Shown in pieces: positions 13,790 through 64,000 of a DNA stretch of 64,000 bases. Position numbers and translations under genes: made by a program. Positions within the stretch are counted from its first letter, which is position 1. Every line of letters starts with the position of its first letter. Origin of the DNA: a virus; the IMG/VR virus record IMGVR_UViG_3300032177_000008, positions 5,399-69,398 of that record; one strand, 5' to 3'. The notes under the pieces were generated by a model. That model saw only the letters and a program-made list of their open reading frames with translations, was not told the DNA's origin and searched no databases.

Positions 13790-13908
13790 CCCAGGGTAGC
13801 TCAGTTGGTAGAGCATTTGCTGATTAGAGAGGTACCGGTACTCTGCAGAAGGTCATGAACTTCTGTTTCAGCGGGAGGTCAGTGGTTCGAATCCACTCCC
13901 TGGGGTCA
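13790..13908 (+). tRNA. tRNA-like gene with a 50-nt structured insert in place of the anticodon loop
   Basis: Acceptor cccaggg/ccctggg, D arm tagctcagttggtagagc, T arm agtggttcgaatccact; no encoded CCA. Confidence 0.75.
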
Positions 13909-34340: not shown

Positions 34341-35258
34341 TTAAAATTCTCTTCTTTGACGCGCAACCTCAAACTCTTCAATGACTTTAAGCGCCGTATT
34401 CAGATCATACGGGATTTTATACTCAATGTCCTCTGGGTTGATCTCTTTGCATCGAATATACTGAATTAAGGGGATCCTGCGTTTTTCCGTCTCCGAAATT
34501 CTCTCTACACGCCATAGCTTTTGAGTGCGCAATTCACGAAGTACATCACCCGGTCTCAGTTGTGGCCAATTTGAAAGCATTGCGTTAATTTCATTGGGCT
34601 GGGTAGCTCCCCAATCCTGAAGCTGAACTACATTAGTGGAAGGACTGTAGTCGACATAAGCAGTGAGCTGAGGATAAAAACCGCCCTCCCAGTTCGTGCC
34701 GTAACAGTGGGGACAGTTCGAAACAAGACGCTTCTTAATGACAGGGTCGAAACAATTCTGACAGGGTACGCCCGTACTCTTCCGTTTATGAACATAAGTC
34801 GGCTCGCCTGTCGTATCCTCGAGGAGCCAATTCACTTCATCTACAATATAGATCCCCACTACATCGAGCTCGCCATCCATTGTAAAAACAGGACTCAGAA
34901 ACTCTTCTTGAGTACTGATCTGCCGTGTACGAATTTGGTAGTACTGGTTTTTATAGAAATCCCAAAATGTCGCAGTGTAATCCACATATTGGTAAAAATC
35001 TAAAGCACTGATAGGGCCTGCAAGCTGACTCAAATTAATCGTATCGGTGAGTGGCTTAGGCGGCAACCACGGAGTTCCATCAATATTAATGTTATTGATT
35101 TTAGGATTCTGGTTCTGGGCCTCACCGCGGTCGATATAAAATTCAAAGTCAGAAAGGTCCGCCTGATTAGGCAATAACTCCCAAGAAATAAGCATCTTCT
35201 CAGGGAAGCGAGAAAGAGGCTGAGCGGTGAATTTTTTAAAGTGGATGGGAGAAGTCAT
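34341..35258 (-). CDS. putative head closure/neck protein
   Basis: KRK.TG.PC..C.D....CPHCYGTNWEGGF; LRPGD; position between adaptor and sheath. Confidence 0.6.
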   Translation of the reverse strand: MTSPIHFKKFTAQPLSRFPEKMLISWELLPNQADLSDFEFYIDRGEAQNQNPKINNINIDGTPWLPPKPLTDTINLSQLAGPISALDFYQYVDYTATFWDFYKNQYYQIRTRQISTQEEFLSPVFTMDGELDVVGIYIVDEVNWLLEDTTGEPTYVHKRKSTGVPCQNCFDPVIKKRLVSNCPHCYGTNWEGGFYPQLTAYVDYSPSTNVVQLQDWGATQPNEINAMLSNWPQLRPGDVLRELRTQKLWRVERISETEKRRIPLIQYIRCKEINPEDIEYKIPYDLNTALKVIEEFEVARQRREF

Positions 35259-35983
35259 ATGTGCCTTTGATACTCAGCGACTTGGACACACATCGTGATA
35301 AAATTTTTAGCAGCCATAACTTCTTTTGCTTTTTGGCAATTAAAACAAGATGATACAGTATTTTCTAAAGAATAGTAGGGTTCGTTATTTATTCGATCAG
35401 CGGAGTTTAATAAAATTACTTCTCCAGTCCTTGTGTTTTTTCTAGTTGAAAAACCCCCACAATAAAGACATCCCTTTAATATTATTGCTACGTAGTCTTT
35501 TTTAGTTAGATAACTTTCATAGCCTCGTCTTTGGGCGCCACTAATATGTTGTCGGTAAGAACGGTTTTTTATCGCCTCACTATTTGGCAAAATAGTGTAT
35601 TTGCGCCTTAAATCTTCTTTTTTACACCCACAACTCTTTGTTCGCCCACTGGTTACGTGTGCTACTCGTAACTCAACTTTTTTGCTACAAATACACTCAA
35701 ATAGCCAAGTAGCAGAGTGATAGCTGTCCATTCTAATAAATTTAATTGCTTTTAAGTAAGCAAACTTTTTATCAGTATAATCTTTACCTTGGGCTTTACA
35801 TTGTCTGCCGCAGGATTTTTTCTTCCCATTTAACAGATCACATTCATATGCTTCTACTACAATCATACACTTGCATTGGCAATACCAGCGCTTTGTAAAA
35901 CCATCAACAAGATACAAAGATGTTAGTTTGCCATATACGGCCCCCGGGGTAACTTTATCTTTTTTTATGACGCTACCAGTCAT
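35255..35983 (-). mobile_element. free-standing HNH-type homing endonuclease
   Basis: Two YG.L...W.C.C.C...G..KSCG repeats; CLYCG...DRINN..YY...N.VS.C..C. Confidence 0.85.
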
Positions 35984-36446
35984 AACCAATAGCTTCGTAT
36001 TCCGAGTGAAATCCTCCATTATAAGCACCTTCTACGTTCTGTTGTATTTTAAAATTAAGTTTTTTAGCCTCGTAATCACTAGCTAAATTCTGAATCCAGG
36101 ATTGATAATAACTTGTCTTGTTTGATCGGACAATTGACGTCCCACCGCTGTTGTACGTAAGTTCATTTCTGCTTTGATAGAGTCCTGCCATCTTTAAGCA
36201 AATAACCGTAGCCCCATGAATTAATAAATAAAGGCTAGGAAAAGTTCCATACCCTACTGGGTTTAGCAACGGGGTTGTCGTATTCCAATCACTAATCGTC
36301 AACATGAGCGCAAGATCTAAGCGCTTGTCATCAATCTCTTTTCGACGGAGCAACCGGTTCAGTTGCTCGTTATCCATCAAAAATAAGCGAAGGTACTCTA
36401 ATGCTTTTTCTTTTCGGGAAGCCTCAAGGGGCGTTAGAACTGCCAT
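35973..36446 (-). CDS. putative head-tail adaptor
   Basis: LRLFLMD..QLNRLL...WNTTTP...RNELTYNSGG; position downstream of the capsid. Confidence 0.6.
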   Translation of the reverse strand: MAVLTPLEASRKEKALEYLRLFLMDNEQLNRLLRRKEIDDKRLDLALMLTISDWNTTTPLLNPVGYGTFPSLYLLIHGATVICLKMAGLYQSRNELTYNSGGTSIVRSNKTSYYQSWIQNLASDYEAKKLNFKIQQNVEGAYNGGFHSEYEAIGYDW

Positions 36447-36500: not shown

Positions 36501-36569
36501 CAGTGGTAACGGGATTTGAACCCATGTCCCCGGCTAAACCGGTATCCTAGGCCGCTAGACGATACAACT
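36501..36569 (-). tRNA. tRNA-Glu-like element with truncated anticodon arm (pseudo-tRNA)
   Basis: Minus strand: tcgtctagcggcctagga D arm, atgggttcaaatcccgt T arm, ccgg-tttag-ccgg anticodon arm, no CCA. Confidence 0.65.
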
Positions 36570-51024: not shown

Positions 51025-51108
51025 ATTTTTCTACAAAGTAAAAATTAGACCTTACTACAAAGTAAAAATGTGGTTTTTGCTGGTATAAGTTTCATGGGAG
51101 GTTTACCC

Positions 51109-53216
51109 ATGAACTATAAATATACAAGCAATCCATCCGAAGTAGAGGAAATTGCAAAACAACTGCGACTGGAAAAATCTATTGCAGTGGATACAGAAAC
51201 TACCGGCCTACATCCACACGACAACCAAGTGATTCTTCTTTCTTTGAGTAGTCGAAAGAACACTTATCTGATTGATACCCGAGACAAGCGCTGTCTTTTA
51301 GCCTGCAAAGATTTGCTTGCAGATGAAGCAATTGCGAAGTTAGGCTTTAATCTTCTCTTCGATTACAGCATGATCAAGGGGACTGCTGGGATCGATTTAG
51401 AAGGCTGTTGGGATTTATTCTTAGGAGAGATCGCTCTCACAAATGGTATCCAATTTGATGGTCGCAGTTTGGCAGCAGTGACCAAGAAATACATCAAAAA
51501 GGAAAGAGATAAAACTCTCCAAAAGAGCTTCATTGGGCATGTGGGAGAATTCACAACTGAACAACTTGCTTACGCTGCTGAAGATACCGCTGATCTCTTT
51601 CTAATCGGTGACGAGATGAAAAAGAAGATTATACAAGAAAATCTTCTAGCCACTTGGAGAACGGAAAACAACGCGATTCCTGCTTATGGGGATATGTATG
51701 TCTATGGTCAAAAACTTGACACAAGCGCCTGGACTGATCTCATGCATACCCAGCAAGGAAAGTTGCTTGAGGCTAAAAAGGAGCTGGATACCTTCTTTGA
51801 GCCCGTCTATGGACAAGACCTCTTCGGCGGAACGGCAGTAAACTATGGTTCTCATTCACAAGTTCTTTATGGACTTCAGTGGATGGGGGTTGAAATTGAT
51901 GGCGCAGAGATTGAAAGCACAGGTAAGGAGGTGCAAAAGAAGATCATGCATCTTCCAGTCATTATGGCACTCAATAAATACCGTGCCGCGGAGACTGCTA
52001 TTAGCCGATATGGTCAAAAGTGGTTAGATGCGATCAATAAGAAAACGGGCAGAATCCATCTTCAGAATAATCAATGGGGAACTGAAACTGGACGAGGATC
52101 AGGAAAGGGAGGGCTCAATGATAGAAATATCCCGCGGGATAAACGCTATCGGCAGTGCTTCACAACTGACTCAGACCGGTTGATTTCCACAGTGGATTAT
52201 AGCGGGGCAGAGCTGCGTATTTTAGCAGAGCTCTCCGGAGATGAACTCATGATCAAAGGCTTCAACTCAGGAGTGGACTTCCATTGTTTTGTTGCAGCCA
52301 TGCTCTTTAATCGGGAGAAAGTAGAGAAGAAAGATCCGATTAGGCAACCTACGAAGACAATCAACTTCGGTTAGCGAGAAGCCGAGCCGAAATAAAACTC
52401 ACTCAATTCAGGGAAACCCGAATTACGTCTATGTAAAGGGCAATCCTGAGCGAATCCGGTGGGAACACTGGAAGCGTGCAACGACTCACAGCGCAGACAG
52501 AACGCCTGCGGACTGGGTACACGAAAGTGTAAATACGGTGAGGTAGCAAGATTTGCTACAAGGTATAGTCTGGACCAAAAGTAATTTTGGAAAATCCGTT
52601 AGCTTATGGAATGGGACCCACACGACTTTATGTATCGTTAATGGGTGAAGGATACAAAACAACAATAGAGGAATGCAAGGATCTTTTCGAGCGTTATAAA
52701 CGTACTTTCGGTACTGCAGTCGATTGGCTGGAAAGTCAGAAGGCAACTGCACGAAATAAACTCATGATGGTAAACACTTCCGGCAGAAAACGCTGGTGGA
52801 TCAAACCAGAATACGGGAGATCAAAAGCAACTGTTCTTGCAGCAATTAGAAAAAAGAACAAAGGAAAGGATCTAACTGAAGACCAAGAAAGTGAAGCTTA
52901 TAAAGAAGCTGAGGATAAATGTAAATCAGCCTGGTCTGGAATTGAGCGAGCTGGAGCTAATTTCTTGGTTCAAAGCGAGAACGTAGAATGGACCAAGCAG
53001 GCTATGTACGAAATCAGAAAGGAGTGCAAGAAAAGAAGCTATGACGCACGCATGTACAAAGAAGTCTATGATGAGATCGTTTTAGATGCCCCTAAAACAT
53101 GCGCAGAGGAAGTCCACGAGCTTCAGAAGAAAATCATGATCGAGTGTGGCCAGCGCCGAATGAATAAAGTGCCAGTAGAGGTAGAAGGACATTTAGATCC
53201 ATGCTGGACTAAATAA
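51109..53216 (+). CDS. polA: family A DNA polymerase with 3'-5' exonuclease; exons 51109-52371 and 52599-53216
   Basis: DTETTGL, FNLLFD, YAAED; motif A DYSGAELRILA; motif B KTINFG|LAYGMG restored by splicing; motif C VYDEIV. Confidence 0.92.
52372..52598 (+). ncRNA. group I self-splicing intron (227 nt, no ORF)
   Basis: Exon ends in U, intron ends in G; P aattcagggaaa, Q aatcctgagc, R gtgcaacgactca, S aggtatagtct; P1 ttcggt/gccga. Confidence 0.92.
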
Positions 53217-53728: not shown

Positions 53729-53793
53729 CTGATTATTAACCAGGGTTGAGTCCATGCTCGACCCTGGTTATTTTATTTGATATGATTTTACTT

Positions 53794-54057
53794 ATGAAAA
53801 AGTCATGGGAGTTGGGGTTTTTGAAAGTGGCTGGGTTAGGGGACTTTTTTAGAGGTGCCCGCGGTGCAGTTCAAAAGTCGGTAAGCGGCTCAGGAATTCG
53901 TGCAGCTGACCTTGCAATAAAAAGAACGTATCCAACTAGCTGGGTACCAAAGGTGGATGCTGTAAATACTAACCGCAATTTTAATGTAAGTGGTTGGTTA
54001 CCTGGCAGCCCAATTCCTGAAAAACTACGATACAAAGGACCTAAAAACAAGGCCTGA
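53794..54057 (+). CDS. small basic protein with WELGFLKVA motif
   Basis: Shares its N-terminal motif with late small proteins. Confidence 0.6.
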   Translation: MKKSWELGFLKVAGLGDFFRGARGAVQKSVSGSGIRAADLAIKRTYPTSWVPKVDAVNTNRNFNVSGWLPGSPIPEKLRYKGPKNKA

Positions 54058-54188
54058 CGCACCTGGCAAAAACAGCCCTTTTCCGGGTATAAGTTAATTA
54101 GTAGAGGATTTGCTATCTATTGCCCAGTCATCACTTAACCGATGGCTGGGCATTTGTATTTAAACCACCTTTAAATAAAGGAGAAAAT

Positions 54189-57100
54189 ATGCTTGCAAGA
54201 AAACTAAAGACTCAGTCCGTAGATCGAGACTTTGAATTGGCTCAGGCTGTTGGAAGAGAAATGCATCGGATCATGGAACCCTATACTAAAGATACAAACA
54301 CATGGTTCCTCGTTGATGCGTCTGCGCAAGCTCTCAGAGACAGTGTCCTAGATAATCATGAAGACCATATTCGAGCAGAAGACCTTAGAGACTTATCGCA
54401 AGCAACTATTCGTAGAATTGCGATTATGCAGCTTCAGCTTGCTGTAGATAAAAAGCAAGTTGAGGAGAATATCAGAAAGATATTTAAAACTGCAAAATGG
54501 TATCAAAAATGTCAATGCTGGGTAGAGTTAATTATCTATAGAATGTTTATGAGCCGGGTTCGTAATATTGTACAAAAACTAAAATAAGGAGGTCCAAATG
54601 ATGCCCAATCCAGCAACAAAACTAAGTAAAGATGATCATAAGCGATTACGAGAGTTTGTGAAGGTGCTGAGCGAGTTGAGTAAAAACTTCGTTGAGTTTG
54701 ATAAGAGGTACCCTGATGTACTTCCGCTACTCAAAGATCTAGCGGTTCTGCCCAATAAGCAAAACAGTTCCCTTCTAGAAATCTCGGAGTTCCACCTGAT
54801 ATCAAAAAGTCTTCATCTGATTAGTACTCGTTTTGCGAGAGATCTGATGATGAAGTTAAATAACAAAGATGCAGAAGTTGTTCAAGTCCCCTGTATTAAA
54901 TAATAGGAAATAATTTATATAAAATAATTTATATAAATTATTTCCTAATTAAAAAGGAGAATCCCATGTCACTCTTGATACGACGTAAGTCCGTCCTGTC
55001 TGGATTAGTTTGGATGCTCGTTGCAGTAGTTCTTGCAGTCGCCTTAGATTATGGTCTGCTTCGCGCAGTCTACAACCCAGAAGTTGTTCTTGAAGGTTTA
55101 GTACAAACATTTAAAACAATCTGGAAGTTTATACCTGGTAGTGAGCTCTTTCGATTAACACATAGCCCAACTGCAGTTCTTTTGTTCACGGTGATTTTCT
55201 GGGCAACGGTTACAACAAAAAACTTTCTGCCAAGAGCTTATGTGTTTTTAGGGCGAGTGCGGAAGTGTTTTAAAAAGGCAGTTTCGATTACCTTTGTTTC
55301 AGGTATAGCATCAGTAGCCTTAGCGGTCCTGCTATACCAGGAAATTAAAAATGGTGGGTCGGAACTTGAAATCCTTTTTGATCTTTCTGTGCTGCAGATA
55401 TCCGTCTACACATTTATTCGTTGTATGCGGAAATTCACTATCCCGGCTATCAAAACATCCTACGACAAAATGAATATTCATCTCGATGAGATGGAGCAAG
55501 TTCGTCAAGGTAATATCAATCCTATCAAAACAAAAGGAGAACGGTCATGTCACGTTGTGCAATAGTCTTATTGTCCTTGTCTATGTGTGCTTGTTCCCTA
55601 GCCCCTATTCGAAACTCGCCACTCTATGCTGAAGCGGGTGCCATCATTATCGCAGTGGAAGCCATCGACATTGTCGCTGGCTGTCCGTTGCAGCTGACTC
55701 AGAAGTTTGGAGACAAACTCCCTGAAGAAGCTAAATGTGATAAATAATTATCAACCGAAGGAACTGCACGGCGCTGTCATGCAGTTTCTTCATTTATTAA
55801 CAACATCAATATAAAAAAGGAGTCCTATATGTTACCAGTATTACTTGGAATGGCTTATGTGGCTACTGCTGTTGGGTCTGCGACTTATGCTGCTTTGTGG
55901 GGAATTGAGAAAGCTGTTACACCTCCGACTCCGTTCCAAACTCGTCGTAAGGAATTGCATAAGAGTCTTGAAACAGAGTTCGCTAAAATCGATGCATTCT
56001 GTAAGGAGTACGCTGAAGAGACTGCTAAAAAGATGATGGTGAGTGATGATCCAAATATCTTGATCACTCATGAGGGTAATCATTGGCGTGCTACTTCTGC
56101 CCCTCTACATAAGAAGATGGTTTTGGAGGCATTGAATAGTCATTTAGAAACCCTTGTGGGGATTCATAAGGCGGAATCTCTTACTTTTGAGGAACAGCGT
56201 GCACTAGTTGAGGATGTATTCGAGTGCAGAATAAAAGTAATTATGACGAATACTATAGAAAATGAGCTGGATCGTATAAAAAGGCGAGCAGAAATTGGGA
56301 TATTGAGAATAACTTATAACAAAGAGCTTGGTGCTATTAATAAGGAGGAGGAAGAAGCCTCTAAGACTAATAGCCTAAAACTCGTTAAGTGTTGATTGCA
56401 TAAGTTAGCGCACCAGTGAATAAACCCGCGGGCACATGCTGTGTGTACGTGGGTTTATTTTTATCTAACAGTTATTCTATAAATAAAAGGAGATTGTCAT
56501 GAACATTATAAAAAATAATTTAGAATGTCCTTGCTGTAAAAAAATTCTCGCGCTTATACAAGAAGAACGTGGCCAAGCAAATACACTTATGGAGATGACC
56601 TCTGCAAAAAAGACTAGAGTTAAGTACAAAGATGCTTTTGAAGTAGAAAAGGTAAGAATAAGAGAATTGATTTTGAGTCCTAAGTACTTAAAAATACGCG
56701 CTGAATATAGAGAGGTTTTTAATGATGATGACCGCCAAATCCGTAGGCGTAACATTGAAAGAAAAGTACAAACTGAATTAAAACCAAAATTTATGGATGA
56801 TGGAATGAGAGATTTTATGAGGTTGTACTTGTTTCATACGAATTACACTTAACCTAACGAAAGGAGATCGCCATGTACGTCATAAAAAACAACCTATCCT
56901 GTCCATGTTGCCAAAAGACTCTTTCCCTTGTTCAAAAGGAAAGAGGTCAAGAAGATGTGCTTCTTGAGGGAGATTTTGCAAAAGAAGTCAAAGCTAAGTG
57001 GGACATAGATTTCGAGTTCACTAAAGATGTGGTTAAGACTATGCTTTCTGATCCGCGATATGAAGATCTCCGTATCGAATACAAAAAAGCAATTGCAAAT

Positions 57101-58714
57101 GAAAGCGAAGAAGCTAAGTGGCGGCGTGGTGGGATTGAAGAGATCGTTGAGATCGATGTTGAGGCTAGAATAGATAGTCGATTCATGACTAATAAGATGA
57201 CATTCTTTATCAGAGAATGCTTGCTGGCTTAACCAAATTGTTAATGGTGCACACGACATTCTCGTGTGCGCCGTTTTATTTACAATAATATTATTAATAT
57301 AAAAAGGAGCAAAAATGCGTTTCAACCAAGAGCTCCATCCGGAGTACGTTTTAAATAAACGCGGAGATAAATTCATCCGCGGTCTTTATCAAGAGATGAT
57401 GGACAATGTTGTTTTTGACCAAGTAAACCCAGAAGAAGTCTATACAAAAAACATTGGGGAACTTGTCAAAGACGATTCTTTCATTCAGCACATCGTTTCA
57501 TGCAAAATGTTCAAGCAGTACGGTTCTAAAGTCTATTGCATCCAAAAAGACTTCGGCCAAGATCTTTCAAACATTGACCGAGAAATCCCGATCGATCATT
57601 TATCCGAACAGTTCATGGGCTACTTCTATCTCCCGCCAGGTACCATTGATGATGATGACGGAGATGTAGAAGGAGCTTATGTCTATATTGGGAAAATGAA
57701 GAACTACCCCCTCAAGGTGCGTGGAGTGGATAATCCAGAGATGAAGATATTAGCCGTTAGTATGCATAATCGAAGGATGACTACTCAGTCCTTTGGGTAT
57801 GTGTTGGGCCATTACTTCACCGAACTTACTGAGGATAAAGTAGGTGCAATGGGGGGTAATAATGGATTCAAAGGTGTTGACTACAGGTACATTGAAGGAA
57901 AGGTTACTGAGATTGGGATCGAGCCTGAAGCGCATAAAAAAAGAAATGCGGTTTACAGACTCTTTGTCAATGCAGTGCTTTACCTTCATTCTCAAGATGC
58001 TTTCATCGATCACTTAAGACCAACGGCTGATCTGTCTCAAACTAAAAAGAAACAAATCGAAGCACAGAAAGGAAAGGTGAATGAGTGTACTGTCCCTGTC
58101 ACTTTGATTAATTGGAACTACGGACAAGAGCGAACTTACAGTGTTGGCCTCACTCAGGTGAAGTCTCATCTGAGGTGGCAACGCTGTGGAGAAAACTTTA
58201 CTCAGATCAAACTAATATGGGTGAAAACTCATGAAAGACACTACAAGAATGTAGAAGCTCACGCCCAATAGCTTGATTAAACAGGTATAAGATAAATGTA
58301 GGCAACGATGGCGTTTCATAATTACCTCCTGTTATCGTTGTCTGCCCTAGGTGAGAAGAGCACGAATGTAGACATACACATTCGTGCTCTTCTCATTACT
58401 ATAATAATGAACCAAAAGGAGTCAGTATGATCTTTGTTCAGTATGCAATTATAGGTATGATTTATAAAGTAATCTGTGAACTCTCGTGGAATGGTTTAGA
58501 TAGGTTTTTTAAAAAAGCCAGCGTTGAGATAGAGATGGCGCATAAAAACCTATCCAGAGAAGATGCAGAAAAAGTAATCGATAAAGAAAGACCAAAAGAT
58601 CCTATGAGTAAGATTATTCTATGGGTTTTTTGGCCCGTTGAAGTAATGCTGCTTACTTTCGCATTTATAGTTTACCAAGTTGCTAAAAATAAAAACAAAC
58701 AAAACCAAGTCTGA
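54189..58714 (+). other. series of hypothetical genes (54189, 54598, 54966, 55547, 55829, 56499, 56873, 57315, 58427) with strong AGGAG RBSs and intergenic hairpins
   Basis: ORF track, RBSs and long inverted repeats; 56499 and 56873 are paralogues. Confidence 0.75.
57315..58271 (+). CDS. uncharacterised phage protein (C-terminal VKSHLRWQRCG..KLIWVKTH motif)
   Basis: 318-aa ORF, AAAAGGAG RBS. Confidence 0.8.
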   Translation: MRFNQELHPEYVLNKRGDKFIRGLYQEMMDNVVFDQVNPEEVYTKNIGELVKDDSFIQHIVSCKMFKQYGSKVYCIQKDFGQDLSNIDREIPIDHLSEQFMGYFYLPPGTIDDDDGDVEGAYVYIGKMKNYPLKVRGVDNPEMKILAVSMHNRRMTTQSFGYVLGHYFTELTEDKVGAMGGNNGFKGVDYRYIEGKVTEIGIEPEAHKKRNAVYRLFVNAVLYLHSQDAFIDHLRPTADLSQTKKKQIEAQKGKVNECTVPVTLINWNYGQERTYSVGLTQVKSHLRWQRCGENFTQIKLIWVKTHERHYKNVEAHAQ

Positions 58715-58810
58715 GTTGTAGAGATGTGTCAACAGCACATCTCTACAACTCAATTCCGATCCCGCTTCTAACGGACTAAAATAATCTGAAGCAAACCAAA
58801 GGAAACTCAA

Positions 58811-60214
58811 ATGGTAAAAAAGAAAACAAGTAATTTAGAACAAATCAAAACGTTTTTAGAAATCAAACAAAAGTGGGTGGAACGCGCTGCTGATAAGGAA
58901 GAGAAAACTGGAGTCCCTACTCAAATTCCACTCAGCAAATTTTTGAATAAAGAGCTGGAGAGTTCTGTTGCCGATGAAGTAGAAGCTTACGCTGAAGCTC
59001 TAGGTGCCAGAACTTTTGATGAGAAGCATCAGGCCATCCTCAATATTATTGAGGCTAGAACAAAAGCTCTCGTAGGTACCACCGAAGATCCAGAAGCGTT
59101 AGAAGAGTATGAAAACGCGATGGAAGATGGAGAAGAAGATGCCACAATCAAAGCCCCACGAAAAAGGGGTTGGTTGGAAACTACCTTCGACACACTCTGC
59201 GAAAAGTACGAAGATAGTCCATCAGAAGAGATTCAAAATGAACTGATGGCTCTCGTCGCACAGCTCGAGATTAATCGACGGGTGCATTTCTTCTACGATC
59301 TGCAAAAGCTCCGTGTTGCAGCAGGGCTTCGCAGTGGAACCTATGAACGAGTCTTTGGTGTCAAAGACCTATTCATCGACCACACTGTAGAGCATCTTGA
59401 AAGAATCGAGCGACAAACCGAAAAGATGGTCGATGATATTCTCCAGCGATCCCCGGATAGCCCCTTCTACAACTACCTGATTAATACCTACCGCGGAGTC
59501 GGTACGATGATGGCGGGTTGTATTATCTCAGAAGTCTCTGCTCCTGAACGCTTCCACAGTGTCTCCGCACTTTGGAAATACGCAGGATTAGCGGTTCTAG
59601 GAAATGATGTGAACACCGGGTCGGGTGGTCATGCCCAATACCGCAAAAAAGGAGAGAAAGCCGAGTGGAATCACTTCCTTCGTACTAAACTCCTAGGGGT
59701 ACTTGCCTCCTGTATGACTAAGGCACAGATGCCTTACTACACAGGGTTCGCAGGTAAGTACAATGAGAAGAATGCACCTTCTCCTGATCTTGTAGGATTG
59801 CCTAAACCGCATCCAAAAGATCCATCCAAGTGTGTCAATGTGAAGGTCATGATGGATTACAAAATGCGACTCAGCACACGAAACGAAATGATCCCAGAGG
59901 ATTTTCGAGTCTATAACATTAAAGGAAGAGAAATTTTCCAATATCGTAAAGACACGCCTATCCAGGCCTTTGATAAAAACAAAAAGCCTACTGTGGATGT
60001 AATTCCTAGTCAGCTCTCTCGTAAATCAAAGGGACACATCAATAAAATGGCTTCCCGTTACATGATCAAGATGTTTATCACAGATATCTTGAACAAGTGG
60101 CGAGAGTACAAAGGGTTCGTGCCTCTTCTTACCTATGATGAGGCTAAACTCCGAGGCGGAATCCCACATAAGGGACTTAACCTAATTCGGATTAATCCTG
60201 AAGTGAGAGCATAA
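58811..60214 (+). CDS. Nop/IS110-Tnp-like RNA-binding protein, TasA-like (no recognisable nuclease domain)
   Basis: FYDLQKLRVAAGLR coiled coil; YRGVGTMMAGCIISE..ERFHSVSALWKYAGL; RKKG....WN..L; GHINKMASRYMIKMF; adjacent dual-spacer array; no N-terminal DEDD/RuvC or HNH motif seen. Confidence 0.8.
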   Translation: MVKKKTSNLEQIKTFLEIKQKWVERAADKEEKTGVPTQIPLSKFLNKELESSVADEVEAYAEALGARTFDEKHQAILNIIEARTKALVGTTEDPEALEEYENAMEDGEEDATIKAPRKRGWLETTFDTLCEKYEDSPSEEIQNELMALVAQLEINRRVHFFYDLQKLRVAAGLRSGTYERVFGVKDLFIDHTVEHLERIERQTEKMVDDILQRSPDSPFYNYLINTYRGVGTMMAGCIISEVSAPERFHSVSALWKYAGLAVLGNDVNTGSGGHAQYRKKGEKAEWNHFLRTKLLGVLASCMTKAQMPYYTGFAGKYNEKNAPSPDLVGLPKPHPKDPSKCVNVKVMMDYKMRLSTRNEMIPEDFRVYNIKGREIFQYRKDTPIQAFDKNKKPTVDVIPSQLSRKSKGHINKMASRYMIKMFITDILNKWREYKGFVPLLTYDEAKLRGGIPHKGLNLIRINPEVRA

Positions 60215-60255
60215 ATATAAAATATATAATATAATATATTTTATATTCTAAACTA

Positions 60256-60287
60256 ACCGGGGCGGGTGAGAGCTCGTCCCGGTTTTT
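60256..60287 (+). terminator. hairpin plus T-run abutting the array start
   Basis: aaccggg...cccggtt ttt. Confidence 0.6.
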
Positions 60288-61394
60288 GCCTTGCAAGAAT
60301 TGAAATCCAGAGTTCAACTTCGTGCCAAGCCCTTTCTGAAATCCAATCAGAACGTTCGTGCCACATATCCCGTGAAAACCAGTATACGTGTTCGTGCCTC
60401 ATCCTTCCTGAATACCAATCAGAACGTTCATGCCATTGATCTACTGAAACCCACGGCGCATTTGCGTGCCAAACCCGAGTTGTAAACCAACCCCATTGTT
60501 CGTGCCCTACGCCTTTTGAAATCCAAAACGGGAATTCGTTCCAGAGGAGTTATGAAAACCATAGCAATCTTGATTGCCCTACGGTGCTTGAAACCCCAAA
60601 CGGTAGTTCGTGTCAAAAACTATATGCAATCCAAAATTGAACTTCGCGTCATCGAGGTAATGAAGCCCTATTTGATTGTTCGTGCCAAGACATCAATGCT
60701 AACCCAACAAGTTCTGCTATCCATCCCCACTTTGAAAACCCGCAGTGAAATGATTGCCTTTCGAGCCCTGTAAACCCAGACAGGAATGCGTGCCACTATA
60801 AACTTGATACCCAGATTGCCGATAGGAAATTGAAACCCTAATTTTGACTGCTTGCCCCATCGATGTTGAAGTCCAAGACGCTTATTCGTGACAATGCTTT
60901 ATTGAAAACCTAGAATGAAGTTCGCGCCAGTGCTCATTTGAAAACCAATATGGCCATTCGTGCCTTTGAACCAATGCCGCCCAAAATGATGGTGCTTACC
61001 AAACGTAAACTGCAACCCTACAAAAGAATGTGTGCCTTTCTCTTCGTGAAGACCAACGGATTATTTCGTGCCATACCAGGTCTGAAACCCAAAAAGCGAA
61101 TTCGTGCCAATAGGGAATTGAAAACCAAACAGCCATGTCGTGCCCCGCCCACATTGAAACCCACTGGATTTATTCGTGCCTTACATCTCTTGAACCCCAT
61201 CGGTTTCGTTCGTGCCTTGATAGACCTGAAAACCAGACCAGTATTTCGTGCCTAAGAGACCGTGTAACCCATGATCGCCCCGCGTACTACCAATCATATG
61301 AAACCCTAATCTCTGATGTTTGCCATTATGCGATTGAACCCCTAGAGGTGAATTCGTACCACTTCTGCATTGAAGTCTAATGCAGAAGTGGTAG
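60283..61394 (+). repeat. TIGR-like array 1: 31 units of 36 bp
   Basis: Alternating 9-nt repeats TKCGTGCCH and TGAAANCCH separated by variable 9-nt spacers; one unit has a 10-nt deletion (~60814). Confidence 0.92.
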
Positions 61395-61404
61395 TTGTAA
61401 TAAA

Positions 61405-61656
61405 ATGAAATTTTTAAAAGAAACAACAGATTTTGAGGTGTTTACTTCTTGGGGTGGAAAACTAGACTTAGTCGTGTCCTATGATCCTGACAGTCACACC
61501 GTTGAGTACTACATGCGGGATAACAAAACGGGTGAGGCACTCATTCGCCGCGGCAAAAAAGTTCTCATGAAGCGTGTGATGCCAGAAACACATATGGTGT
61601 TAAAGACTCATCCTGAGGTAGGTCACTTTGAAAGAAGCTTTGCTAAAATTAAGTAG
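61405..61656 (+). CDS. 83-aa hypothetical protein between the two arrays
   Basis: ORF starts ~10 nt after the array 1 end hairpin. Confidence 0.6.
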   Translation: MKFLKETTDFEVFTSWGGKLDLVVSYDPDSHTVEYYMRDNKTGEALIRRGKKVLMKRVMPETHMVLKTHPEVGHFERSFAKIK

Positions 61657-61790
61657 TGTTTTATAAATTATTAATTTTTAAAATATTATTTAATTCTATG
61701 AAGCCCCCCGAAGAGCGCCAATTGTTCATCGGGGGAGCCCCATCATCATAGGCTTATAGGATAAATACAAAATTACATAAACGCAATAGA

Positions 61791-61943
61791 TTCGTGCCAA
61801 CCACCAGTTGAAAACCAAAACACAACTTCGTGCCTATGCTCACCTGAAACCCAAAGTCAATGTGCGTGCCTTACATCTCTCGAAAACCAAATCATGACTG
61901 CGTGCCTGAGTGCCAATGTAAACCAACGTCTCCATTCGCACCG
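61791..61943 (+). repeat. TIGR-like array 2: 4 units of 36 bp
   Basis: Same repeats; edges at 61791, 61827, 61863, 61899, 61935. Confidence 0.9.
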
Positions 61944-61970
61944 CCCAGGATATCCTGGGCGGTGATTTTA
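61939..61970 (+). terminator. perfect palindromic terminator closing array 2
   Basis: caccgcccaggatatcctgggcggtg followed by atttt. Confidence 0.75.
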
Positions 61971-62041
61971 TTTAAATAGTCGAATTAGATAATTGGTTAA
62001 ACTAGAAATAATTTATCTAACTTAGACAATTATTTAACCAA

Positions 62042-63676
62042 TTATCTCCCAATTCCATAATAATTATCAGCAGCTTCGCGACAATAAATAGATGAGTGAC
62101 ATGCGTCGTCAGGGTTAGATGCGCGGTGGTCATACTTCAATGCCTTCTGGTCTGTATACTCTGCGTAAATGTTTTCAATGTCACAGAGGAAATCTTTTGA
62201 TGCTTCCCAATTAGGCCACACAATCTCTTGCTTCTTAATGCTACTAAAGAAATCGGACATTACTTCCGTTCGGCTCAATTGGTATCGGTTTCCTGCTTCA
62301 TTGTATTTTTTACGCTCCCCCTGAATACCCACATGTTGGAACTGAATAATCTTATGCACCCCAAAAACTTCTTCTAAACGAGAGTTCACTCCCCAACCGT
62401 GCCCCCAGTCAGACCCAACGCAGCGCACATTAAAAGCTCTAAGAATTCGTATAATCTCGTCCACACAAAAAGTAGGGTGAGCTTCCTTACCCTCAAACCT
62501 TTTGTAGTAAAAATAGTGAAAGGACTTAGGTGACAAATACGTTCCTAAAGAAAGCACCGTATAAGATGCATGCTTCAGCCGCCCCTTCTCAGACTTCTCA
62601 CTTCCATCCGTTCCTTCACCCCAATCAATTCCAGCAAAGATCTCCATCCGCTTCGTCCAGCCATCTGGTTGATACCGAAACGGATGTGTAGAAGAACAAC
62701 AAGACACGAGCTCCGTGCGTGTAATCGGCTTACTCGAGCTGTCAAAACTAATCCCTAGGCACTCGTTGTAGAAAACCCCTTTCGAAAGGTGGGTGTGCTT
62801 ATATAAAAGCTCCTTCCACTTGTCTGGGTTCTGGTACCAAGGCACCATCAACTGCGAGATCCGGTATCCAATCAAATCTCGAGTATTTGAAAACGCAATC
62901 CACTTACCATTCTTAGGGTCAATCCGGTTGCCACACTTGTTGCAAATGGGCCCGTCCTTTCCCAAACACTTCTCATCCAAATAGTTCCAGTGCTGAGGGA
63001 TGTGGTGGTCACAGGGGACGAGCCATTCGCACTGGGAGGAGATATCCCAGTGCTGCTGTATTGGATTGTCGAGGCTCTTTGGAGTTCCACTCAGAATCTC
63101 CTGGGGGTCTTCAGCATGAGATAGGCACTCCTCAATCACCTGAATGTTTGAGGTAAGAAGATCCTGCACCTCATCCAAACAAAGAAGATCTGCACTCAGA
63201 CCGCGAGCTCGATCGGCATTTAAGAAGGCTGACCGAATCCAACACATAGAGCCATTTGACAGGCCGCGTTCAAAAACTTGAGCACTTGTGGATGAGTTTA
63301 AAAAGTACTTCGAGATGATCGGTGAATCTTCAATCCATGGACGCAGCTTGCCATTGGAAAATTGTCTCGATTGCAAGTGGCTCGGACTTATATAGAGGGT
63401 CTTCAAGTAGGGGGTTAGCACAGACTGAATGATGATTTCATTTGCAAGAGATGTGGTTTTTTCAACCTGCCTTCCACAAAGAAGAAGCTTCTTTTTGTAC
63501 TTCGTATTGTAGATGGGGAATAGGTAATCCCTACCTTTAAAACTGAAGGGTTTTCCATCGAGATAGATGAGTTTGGATATCCAATCGCTCTTCGTGGCTT
63601 TGAGTAGTTTTTTGACTGTCCCATTAGATTGAAAGAGTTGCTGAACTTTAAGAGTGGCTTTTGTGGTTTCATCCAT
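62042..63676 (-). CDS. terL: terminase large subunit
   Basis: GRQVEKTT Walker A, LCLDEVQD Walker B, SGTPK coupling motif, FAGIDWG and PDDACHS nuclease motifs. Confidence 0.92.
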   Translation of the reverse strand: MDETTKATLKVQQLFQSNGTVKKLLKATKSDWISKLIYLDGKPFSFKGRDYLFPIYNTKYKKKLLLCGRQVEKTTSLANEIIIQSVLTPYLKTLYISPSHLQSRQFSNGKLRPWIEDSPIISKYFLNSSTSAQVFERGLSNGSMCWIRSAFLNADRARGLSADLLCLDEVQDLLTSNIQVIEECLSHAEDPQEILSGTPKSLDNPIQQHWDISSQCEWLVPCDHHIPQHWNYLDEKCLGKDGPICNKCGNRIDPKNGKWIAFSNTRDLIGYRISQLMVPWYQNPDKWKELLYKHTHLSKGVFYNECLGISFDSSSKPITRTELVSCCSSTHPFRYQPDGWTKRMEIFAGIDWGEGTDGSEKSEKGRLKHASYTVLSLGTYLSPKSFHYFYYKRFEGKEAHPTFCVDEIIRILRAFNVRCVGSDWGHGWGVNSRLEEVFGVHKIIQFQHVGIQGERKKYNEAGNRYQLSRTEVMSDFFSSIKKQEIVWPNWEASKDFLCDIENIYAEYTDQKALKYDHRASNPDDACHSSIYCREAADNYYGIGR

Positions 63677-63745
63677 AGCTGTCTAAAACATAGCCGATGA
63701 TGAGAGATACACCAACAGGTTCTTTTAGGTCTATCTGCACTTACC

Positions 63746-63820
63746 CCCGGCAAGGGGAATATGCGGACCGTATTCAGGCATGGGCGATACCAGAAAGCCC
63801 GGCAAGGGGAATATGCGGAC
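63746..63820. repeat. 23-bp perfect direct repeat cccggcaaggggaatatgcggac (63746-63768, 63798-63820)
   Basis: Read directly; upstream of terL. Confidence 0.9.
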
Positions 63821-63896
63821 TTCCCCGGCAGTGACGTGCAAGGTTTTAAGTTGTCTAAATCACTCAAGTGAATACTAAGACTACACCCCAAAAGCC

Positions 63897-64000
63897 AATA
63901 ACACGCTGTGACGTATCAGACTATCAGGACCCCATTGCAACCAGTGGTTAATGGAAATTTTTTCCTCAGAATAGGTGATTATTCCCATACAATAATATAA
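63897..64000. repeat. 104-bp inverted repeat, copy 2 (may extend past the window end)
   Basis: Reverse complement of 4535-4638. Confidence 0.95.

Follow-up and report, generated by a model that had tools for sequence, protein, structure and literature searches.

TIGR-Tas systems are compact RNA-guided DNA binders that do not depend on a protospacer-adjacent motif (PAM), and the family is not unexplored, as it was published in 2025 (PMC12045711). Tas proteins are classified by their N-terminal architecture (PMC13421893): TasR carries an N-terminal RuvC domain and cuts both strands; TasH, the subject of two papers (PMC13421893; 10.64898/2026.08.11.744272), carries an HNH nuclease; and the TasA proteins of Flavonifractor plautii (FpTIGR-TasA) and MbTasA are without a nuclease domain. 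FpTasA binds 36-nt tigRNAs (PMC12045711), and in a 2026 preprint (10.64898/2026.09.09.750476) experiments with MbTasA demonstrated that it represses transcription under RNA guidance. The natural roles, the targets and the acquisition of spacers are described as still open (PMC12045711; preprint 10.64898/2026.09.09.750476). Here we analyze a window of 64,000 nt, bases 5399 to 69398 of the 69,398-nt IMG/VR virus record IMGVR_UViG_3300032177_000008 (45% complete according to CheckV), in which a gene for a 467-aa protein is followed by two repeat arrays. This locus very probably represents a phage-encoded dual-repeat TIGR-Tas system, that is, a nuclease-free RNA-guided DNA binder of the TasA type. 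The analysis shows the anatomy of the arrays, the Tas fold of the protein, the lack of a recognizable nuclease and an association of such proteins with arrays across the family; it also found no self-targets in the 69 kb of the record.

Both arrays lie on the + strand, directly 3' of open reading frame (ORF) 58811-60214, and keep a strict 36-nt register in which an edge repeat, a spacer A, a loop repeat and a spacer B, each of 9 nt, follow one another. FpTasA likewise has a dual-repeat 36-nt array downstream of its gene. Array 1 (60283-61388) consists of 31 units of 36 nt, of which 29 are full, one measures 26 nt and one is a terminal hairpin unit, while array 2 (61791-61934, with a terminal edge-like 9-mer at 61935-61943) has four units. 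An initial annotation, made from the letters of the sequence, had counted the same 31 and 4 units; its end for array 1, at 61394, is better placed at 61388. Self-identity at a lag of 36 nt reached 0.49-0.57 in three array segments, compared with 0.18-0.34 at the other lags within 33-39 and with a background of 0.271 ± 0.021 (maximum, 0.35) in 1,332 other 500-nt windows of the contig. Lags of 18 and 54 gave intermediate values in the arrays (0.32-0.36), as would be expected of two repeats that are related to each other. Position weight matrices for the edge and loop repeats, derived from the clean units of the arrays, picked out edge-like and loop-like 9-mers that alternate in steps of 18 nt over 60283-61371 and again over 61791-61917. 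The lag-36 identity and this alternation bear out the register of alternating 9-nt repeats and spacers that had been proposed at the outset, and its spacers are, as was also claimed, nearly all different (32 of 33 distinct for spacer A and 32 of 33 for spacer B).

At a stricter matrix threshold, 30 of the 60 edge matches and 33 of the 76 loop matches on the + strand of the 64-kb window fell inside the locus, and none of the 31 edge and 37 loop matches on the - strand did. The arrays contain 31 edge-loop-edge triples at the chosen score, and neither strand of the 69,398-nt contig has any outside them, a count that speaks for uniqueness only and has no independent significance, since the matrices were trained on these arrays. 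Owing to the differences between spacers, Tandem Repeats Finder detected no more than 2.8 copies (60336-60435, period 36). We detected no solo tigRNA-like units outside the arrays in the 69,398-nt contig and no Rfam match inside the locus. The single irregular step is found between the loops at 60805 and 60831, which are 26 nt apart, as spacer B and one further base (10 nt in all) are missing from the unit at 60787. In the last unit of array 1 (61353), spacer A and spacer B are exact reverse complements, which creates an in-register hairpin (stem-loop 61357-61393, -24.3 kcal/mol, z -6.07) without a U-run. Array 1 begins with an edge repeat truncated at its 5' end, UUUUUGCCU, and array 2 ends with UUCGCACCG, a truncated edge fused to the terminator at 61939-61964; truncated edges at the start or end have been reported for TIGR arrays (PMC12045711).

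The tas gene (58811-60214, +) has an ATG start, with an AAGGAAA ribosome-binding site 7 nt upstream, and its 467-aa product is a Tas protein. The AlphaFold model, built with an alignment of 87 homologues, has a predicted local distance difference test score (pLDDT) of 91 and a predicted template modeling score (pTM) of 0.87. It divides into an N-terminal helical domain (residues 1-135), a coiled coil (139-213) and a Nop C-terminal domain (about 217-467). In the model, two helices (139-182 and 187-213) form a long hairpin equivalent to the dimerizing coiled coil, and a homodimer prediction with two copies of residues 136-467 scored 0.01, which is no evidence either way. Foldseek returned 11 matches at an E value of at most 0.001, the top 10 of which were all TasR or TasH complexes, followed by IS621/ISCro4. 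With VIA-align, the best structural match was TaTIGR-TasR (PDB 9MTY), at Z 17.5 with 219 residues aligned, a root-mean-square deviation of 3.4 and 27% identity. The TasH entries followed at Z 15.8-17.1 (227-244 residues aligned), among them SpTasH of Salicola phage CGphi29 (9W03, 9W04 and 21KL; Z 16.5-17.1), which is also encoded by a phage and has a dual-repeat array. The profile of the 87 homologues had three distinct matches among the PDB sequences, namely TasR (3.5e-35), TasH (6.5e-23) and IS621 (9e-4), and the single protein matched 9MTY at 6.3e-10. One homologue (P0031) carries the NCBI name "TIGR-Tas system RNA-guided endonuclease". The Nop/Tas assignment of the initial annotation, for which a structure and profile check had been suggested, has thus passed that check (Z 17.5 for TasR, 17.1 for TasH, E 3.5e-35). 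Two of the motifs it listed, GVG..A..I.SE and SALWKYAGL, are present as GVGTMMAGCIISE (229-241) and at 252-260; the third, H..A.R, differs slightly, the actual residues being H409-INKM-A-S-R416, or H-x4-A-x-R.

Family labels give the protein a different name. Pfam finds only PF02371 (E 1e-5, residues 223-283), and the PHROGs match is a "transposase" family (IS116/IS110/IS902, 1.4e-23), so the locus could be taken for an insertion sequence of the IS110 family, to which the repeats would then belong. The transposase name, however, is explained by a shared Nop-like RNA-binding domain (PMC12045711), which IS621 and ISCro4 have in common with the present protein, and both recombinases are weaker structural matches (Z 13.5-13.7, or about 13.6 versus 17.5 for TasR). 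IS110 recombinases combine a DEDD domain with one two-loop RNA, whereas here there is an array of many short guides, and a tandem series of 35 dual-spacer units does not make a bridge RNA. No element ends were noted either, though no search was aimed at them. The N-terminus is all-helical and hence has no RuvC-like DEDD domain, which already contradicts this explanation; a true IS110 DEDD domain, named at the outset, together with element ends, as one finding that would overturn the Tas reading, was looked for and is not there. We give the insertion sequence virtually no credence.

The same model bears on whether the Tas protein has a nuclease of any kind. By DSSP, the full model is free of strands ahead of residue 262, and residues 1-150 folded separately (pLDDT 80) have none either. 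RNase H-like folds (RuvC, DEDD) and HNH (beta-beta-alpha-Me) folds require beta-strands. As residues 1-260 are all-helical, the protein has no RuvC, DEDD or HNH domain. In place of the N-terminal RuvC of TasR or the HNH domain of TasH, residues 1-135 form five helices (pLDDT 80-91), and the protein sequence contains no Cys/His-rich HNH motif. PF02371 is the sole Pfam family in all 15 members of the group of long Tas proteins to which this one belongs (the long clade; 15 aligned sequences, namely the query and 14 relatives), with no RuvC, HNH or DEDD family in any of them. The initial claim that no RuvC/DEDD or HNH motif is visible is therefore upheld by the all-helical region and by Pfam. Its description as a nuclease-less Nop-domain gene holds for the missing nuclease and fails for the bare Nop domain, since a folded N-terminal domain of about 135 aa is also present. 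By the published classification the protein is of the TasA type, as judged from its sequence and predicted model.

The association between this kind of protein and a TIGR array is found throughout the family. We collected 174 related loci, comprising 80 of 98 from IMG/VR, 80 of 473 from JGI metagenomes and 14 from GTDB. The scans with the clade alignment gave distant relatives only, with best-segment identities of 23-50% in IMG/VR, 23-41% in JGI and, over short best segments, 25-50% in GTDB. A lag of 36 was the best one, at an identity of at least 0.5, in 115 of 162 relative sequences, and an array of at least 5 units adjoined the gene in 144 of 176 sequences, counts that include the window and the locus L001. 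Arrays of the relatives extend to roughly 57 units, so that the 31 units seen here are long and not unique. Fold, array, phage context and family association together sustain the reading that the first annotation had offered, a TIGR array with a nuclease-less TasA-type Tas protein in a phage.

Repeats and spacers were compared over the 33 full units (9+9+9+9 nt). The edge repeat has the consensus U[U/G]CGUGCC(A), given as UUCGUGCC, and the loop repeat UGAAA[A/C]CCA, given as UGAAAACC. In the edge, the second base is U in 21/33 and G in 12/33 units, the CC is kept in 30-32/33, and the last base is A in 17/33 and U in 11/33. The loop is more regular, with U in 32/33 and G in 33/33 (box D), CC in 33/33 (box C) and a final A in 23/33. 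Box C is thus present in both repeats, and box D is full in the loop and partial in the edge; both repeats are compact and without kink-turn stems. Repeat columns hold 0.8-2.3 bits, versus 0.03-0.27 bits for spacer columns, with the exception of the first base of spacer B, which is A in 24/33 units (0.6 bits). Some half-guides occur twice: spacer A is identical at 61173 (array 1) and 61863 (array 2), with different partners, spacer B is identical at 60319 and 60391, and the spacers A at 60813 and 61101 are one base apart. This reuse could come from recombination or duplication of units, or from targets with a common 9-bp half-site.

Among the described systems, the repeats of TaTIGR/ParTIGR, UGCGAGCCA and UGAAACCCA, are the nearest to those found here and almost the same, while those of FpTIGR read AGUGUACC and AGUAACCC and those of SpTIGR AGCGAGCCA and AGACAACCA (Table S1, PMC12045711). 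SpTIGR spacers also differ in length, with a total of 16 nt (PMC12045711) compared with 9+9 nt here. A UG start, a CCA end and an A-rich loop form the box D/box C layout of TaTasR (PMC12045711), which our locus has in common with TaTIGR-TasR except that most of its edges start with UU and not UG. Most relatives have arrays that read (G)AGCGAGCCA and (G)AGAAAACCA, with a UG...CCA minority, and in most of them edge and loop start alike, unlike the UU edges of this locus. We also observed a large clade of marine metagenome and IMG/VR loci (L005-L011 and L090-L128) with the edge AACGAGUCA and the loop AGACAACCA, in which bases 2 and 7 covary (as A and U in the edge and as G and C in the loop), a box D/box C covariation that is missing from the UU edges of the present locus.

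A Nop fold with box C/D logic is common to small nucleolar ribonucleoproteins, and particles containing Nop56/58 were matched by VIA-align at Z 7.3-8.2, which would also suit an RNA-guided system that acts on RNA in the manner of box C/D particles, not on DNA. The match to Tas proteins is far better (Z 17), a scan of 60 proteins from about 45% of the genome turned up nothing that resembles fibrillarin or L7Ae, and TasR is reported as inactive on RNA substrates (PMC12045711). We regard an RNA target as exceedingly improbable.

The part of the protein that sets it apart from described Tas proteins is its N-terminal domain (codons 1-135; 58811-59215, +), which is conserved only in the long clade. 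FpTasA has 296 aa versus 467 here, and the excess corresponds to this folded domain of about 135 aa plus two enlarged Nop insertions (codons ~305-408, namely 305-342 and 354-408; 59723-60034, +), as delimited by alignment and DSSP. The insertions include the strands E313-317 and E331-333 (DSSP), the first insertion (305-342) is found in some clade members only, and Pfam had no match in residues 310-407. Our word-index search recovered 95 homologues among 8,000 scored candidates, 14 of them long (376-486 aa, 42-58% identity, 88-99% coverage) and several on contigs of 120-181 kb. The 15 aligned long-clade sequences, at 43-58% identity to the query, share 61 invariant columns, six of which fall on R67, A75, R83, R117, G120 and E123 of the N-terminal domain, where residues 116-123 form a PRKxGxLE motif. 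A search of 1.84 billion representatives gave 990 matches at an E value of at most 0.001, 220 at 1e-10 or below and 8 at 1e-30 or below; among the 150 matches listed, the best stretch started before residue 100 only in P0002, P0003, P0012, P0016, P0098, P0115 and P0191. Because so few of the listed matches begin before query residue 100, the domain appears confined to a small group. When residues 1-135 were searched on their own with the word index, the window's own fragment was the only hit among 384 candidates.

In the part of the published Table S1 (PMC12045711) that we searched, three peptides of the present protein and five clade motifs had 0 occurrences, while generic Tas motifs occurred 287 and 475 times in the same text, a hint that the long clade is absent from the published catalogue. 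What is new here is this small long clade, with its conserved folded N-terminal domain and its enlarged Nop insertions.

The N-terminal domain is located where TasH and TasR bear their nucleases, so that a helical domain stands in the position of the RuvC of TasR, and it is predicted to be folded (pLDDT 80 when modeled by itself, and 75-97 for ten-residue blocks of the full model). These traits, together with the invariant R67, R83, R117, G120 and E123, are what would be expected if the domain were an effector or adaptor, either a HEPN-type RNase with the motif R67-x5-H73 or a docking site, that converts recognition into cleavage, modification or recruitment. R67-x5-H73 resembles the HEPN Rx4-6H motif, and HEPN-type four-helix toxins (8xdj, 7ae2, 5yep) are among the tied best structural rows. 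Those rows, however, have Z 5.0-5.8, with a best Z of 5.8 in the wide VIA search, which is noise for helical bundles by the tool's own calibration. H73 is found in 11 of the 15 members and missing from 4, no HEPN family is significant (the sole HEPN-clan row is Abi_2, in 1/15, E 0.11), and the aligned ranges suggest that a HEPN catalytic motif would map near residue 135 and not at 67-73. Other searches with the domain gave no BFVD match at an E value of at most 0.001, no Pfam family, and an Atlas feature score of 0.78, below the lead threshold, with all structural rows at TM < 0.5. Furthermore, tblastn of six flanking ORFs against the 174 related loci gave 0 matches, so that none of the six genes tested has a homologue beside any of these loci as a partner of the domain might. 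The HEPN-like motif is therefore a weak lead, and an effector or adaptor function of this kind seems improbable to us.

A related and broader proposal is that the N-terminal domain and the Nop insertions make up a fourth Tas architecture beside TasA, TasH and TasR, confined to a few large uncultured phages and working as a module beyond roadblock repression. We consider this speculative and rather unlikely. The domain might then clamp flanking DNA or the displaced strand, offer a docking site to an enzyme of the host or the phage, or serve as an RNase that uses R67-x5-H73.

A near-identical tas gene exists in two pieces on a 52.6-kb contig of another public assembly. The first piece (P0098, 91 aa) is identical up to residue 83, after which the frame changes, and the second (P0002, 379 aa) matches residues 92-467. 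Contigs of run X2 break at 59063/59083 (window ~59060-59083, tas codons 84-91). This split, which detaches the N-terminal 83 residues, would be either a variant within the population or an artifact of assembly. Array 1, moreover, has degenerate repeats in its middle and at its end as well as a unit that lacks 10 nt, and these features and the split copy fit a decaying relic that no longer works. Nevertheless, the ORF is intact here, the 61 invariant columns over 15 sequences and the 30 edge and 33 loop matches at the stricter threshold indicate that the gene and most repeats are well kept, and the identical locus occurs in three independent runs. Decay is in our view very unlikely.

The regions around the arrays suggest how they could be expressed. 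Four long pure-A/T tracts are present in the 69-kb contig, and two of them stand directly upstream of the arrays, each followed by a stable GC hairpin. The leader tract of array 1 (60211-60252, +, 42 nt, pure A/T) is overlapped by a sigma-70-like site, GTGAGA-16-TATAAT (60203-60230, +), with 10 of 12 positions matching; promoter-like sites are not enriched in the region (10, versus 7.5 ± 3.2 in shuffles). A GC-rich hairpin of 13 bp followed by UUUUU (60255-60284, +, -23.2 kcal/mol, z -3.68) comes next, and its U-run doubles as the truncated first edge repeat. It resembles a terminator of tas and is either that or a leader element, and array 1 would be expressed either by read-through from tas or from a separate start. 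Array 2 is preceded by a 37-nt pure-A/T tract (61659-61695, +) with a weak promoter-like site (9/12) and by a GC-rich leader hairpin (61698-61743, +, -23.2 kcal/mol, z -4.30) without a following U-run. A rho-independent terminator (61939-61974, +), with an 11-bp stem of which 9 pairs are GC, followed by AUUUUAUUU (-24.7 kcal/mol, z -6.56), closes the locus. Another of the four A/T tracts, palindromic-looking, lies at 54908-54943, just upstream of the gene 54966-55565, and this type of tract, shared with the array leaders, may be the phage's strong promoter or an UP element. Between the arrays there is an orphan ORF of 83 aa (61405-61656, +), whose status as a real gene is uncertain; it retrieved only itself from an index of 5.8 billion proteins and had 0 matches in Pfam, PHROG and tblastn against the 174 related loci.

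From these features and from published relatives, on which we rely for transcription, processing, dimerization, DNA binding and repression as the role, we can propose the following mechanism. Both arrays would be transcribed from the + strand, and the precursor would be cut within each edge repeat, most likely by a C-terminal Tyr/His dyad of the Tas protein itself. The candidate dyad is Y442-H453 (YDEAKLRGGIPH; 60134-60169, +), in a flexible C-terminal loop (pLDDT 57-76 from residue 441 on) as in SpTasH, which self-cleaves its precursor through Y289/H296 in a flexible C-terminal region (PMC13421893). Such Y/H dyads are reported to be conserved in dual-repeat systems (preprint 10.64898/2026.09.09.750476), and the C-terminal Y...H loop of FpTasA reads PYEVAKLGH (Table S1, PMC12045711). 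Y442 and H453 are invariant in the 15 aligned long-clade sequences, and a profile alignment to SpTasH places Y442 on the Y289 column and the invariant H409 on H256. TaTasR, which does not cut its own guides, has a Trp where the present protein and SpTasH have the processing Tyr. Because Y442 aligns with the catalytic Tyr of SpTasH, we infer that the guides are self-processed.

Cleavage would release about 33 different 36-nt tigRNAs, each reading (..GCCA)-spacer A-UGAAAMCCA-spacer B-(UUCG..). A Tas dimer joined by its coiled coil would grip one tigRNA, with box C (CCA) and box D (UG) as the points of contact, and the two 9-nt spacers would pair with opposite strands of an 18-bp DNA site. From the published 8-nt 3' overhang and C-5 rule (PMC12045711) we derived that this site should correspond to spacer A plus the reverse complement of spacer B. 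Lacking a nuclease domain, the complex would bind and bend DNA and block transcription or replication instead of cutting. Its targets would be outside the 69 kb and would belong to the host, to competing mobile elements or to the remaining phage genome.

Several observations weigh against this interpretation. We compared the 33 guides with both strands of the contig, the arrays being masked, using 4 concatenation geometries and allowing gaps of 0-2 bp, and found no self-targets in the 69,398 nt at 0-1 mismatch in any geometry. With 2 mismatches the expected geometry and a control geometry gave 1 match each (0.2-0.5 for shuffled spacers), and with 3 mismatches there were 11 matches versus 6.4 ± 2.0, which we read as no signal. 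The guides do not target the visible 45% of their own phage genome. Against the 1.31 Mb of the 174 related loci there were likewise 0 matches at 0-1 mismatch, and the 7, 6, 5 and 11 matches with 2 mismatches across the geometries were highest in the control. Regarding processing, H453 is 11 residues past the Tyr, versus 7 for the corresponding His of SpTasH and FpTasA. With UU at the start of 21/33 edges, the G of box D is missing there and would be unable to pair with box C, repeats in the middle of array 1 are degenerate, and one unit is short by 10 nt. A terminator-like hairpin with a U-run between the A/T leader and array 1 may complicate the transcription of that array, and the 4 public runs that carry the locus are all DNA, with no RNA run among those listed. 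Lastly, the N-terminal domain leaves room for a non-canonical activity.

The locus is carried by a tailed phage that is distant from those in culture. For the 60 proteins that were scanned, PHROG matches include the large terminase (8.8e-63), a major head protein, a weak sheath match, an endolysin, an exonuclease, a deoxynucleoside monophosphate kinase and a DNA polymerase in two pieces. The large terminase has at most 29.8% identity to any cultured phage, with all 150 matching records below 60%, and the only cultured phage with a match to the Tas protein is Ralstonia phage phiRSL1 (25.8%). Megablast of positions 57000-64000 against 50,697 phage records gave no match. The locus is found in the 4 listed DNA runs, all from sediment metagenomes, and the contigs from 3 of them are identical to the window, without variants or joints, while the fourth yielded no contig for it. 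Pfam recognized only the large terminase among 11 flanking genes (53746-58714 plus the 83-aa ORF), the other 10 being without a family, and no ParB-like neighbor was found.

Other elements of the window were recorded in passing. Rfam identified a complete group I intron at 52362-52591 (+, 53.2 bits, E 1.1e-10). It sits exactly where ORF 51070-52374 gives way to ORF 52587-53216, and these two ORFs match consecutive parts of one DNA polymerase PHROG (profile positions 653-1071 and 1072-1230), so the polymerase gene of the phage is intron-split. Rfam also matched tRNAs at 13790-13905 (+, 46.4 bits), unusually long at 116 nt, and at 36501-36569 (-, 38.4 bits), while ARAGORN found no tRNA in the window; these may be intron-containing or aberrant tRNAs, or tRNA-like elements. 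Two paralogous adjacent ORFs on the + strand, 56499-56852 (117 aa) and 56873-57232 (119 aa), located 1.6 kb upstream of tas and without a family match, both have an N-terminal IKNNL-x-CPCC motif that looks like a zinc ribbon. An ORF resembling HNH homing endonucleases (35255-36028, -; PHROG 374, 1.8e-20) lies within the block of structural genes.

Viewed beyond its own family, the locus has an analogy, and only an analogy, with CRISPR arrays that serve nuclease-free effectors (type IV, V-M and Cas12k), in that a guide array stands behind an A/T-rich leader and binding would occur without cutting. The protein fold is unrelated, two 9-nt repeats alternate, the spacers are split into 9+9 nt that would read opposite DNA strands, and TIGR-Tas systems are described as having neither a PAM nor adaptation genes (PMC12045711). 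To this family the locus adds a clean and long example from a phage, whose two arrays hold about 33 distinct guides and have an A/T-rich leader and a hairpin apiece, as well as a conserved extra domain exactly at the position of the nuclease in other Tas proteins. If that domain is not functional, the locus would be one more entry in the catalogue, with a 35-guide array still useful for studies of processing and multiplexed repression; if it is functional, the Tas scaffold would carry a wider set of effector modules.

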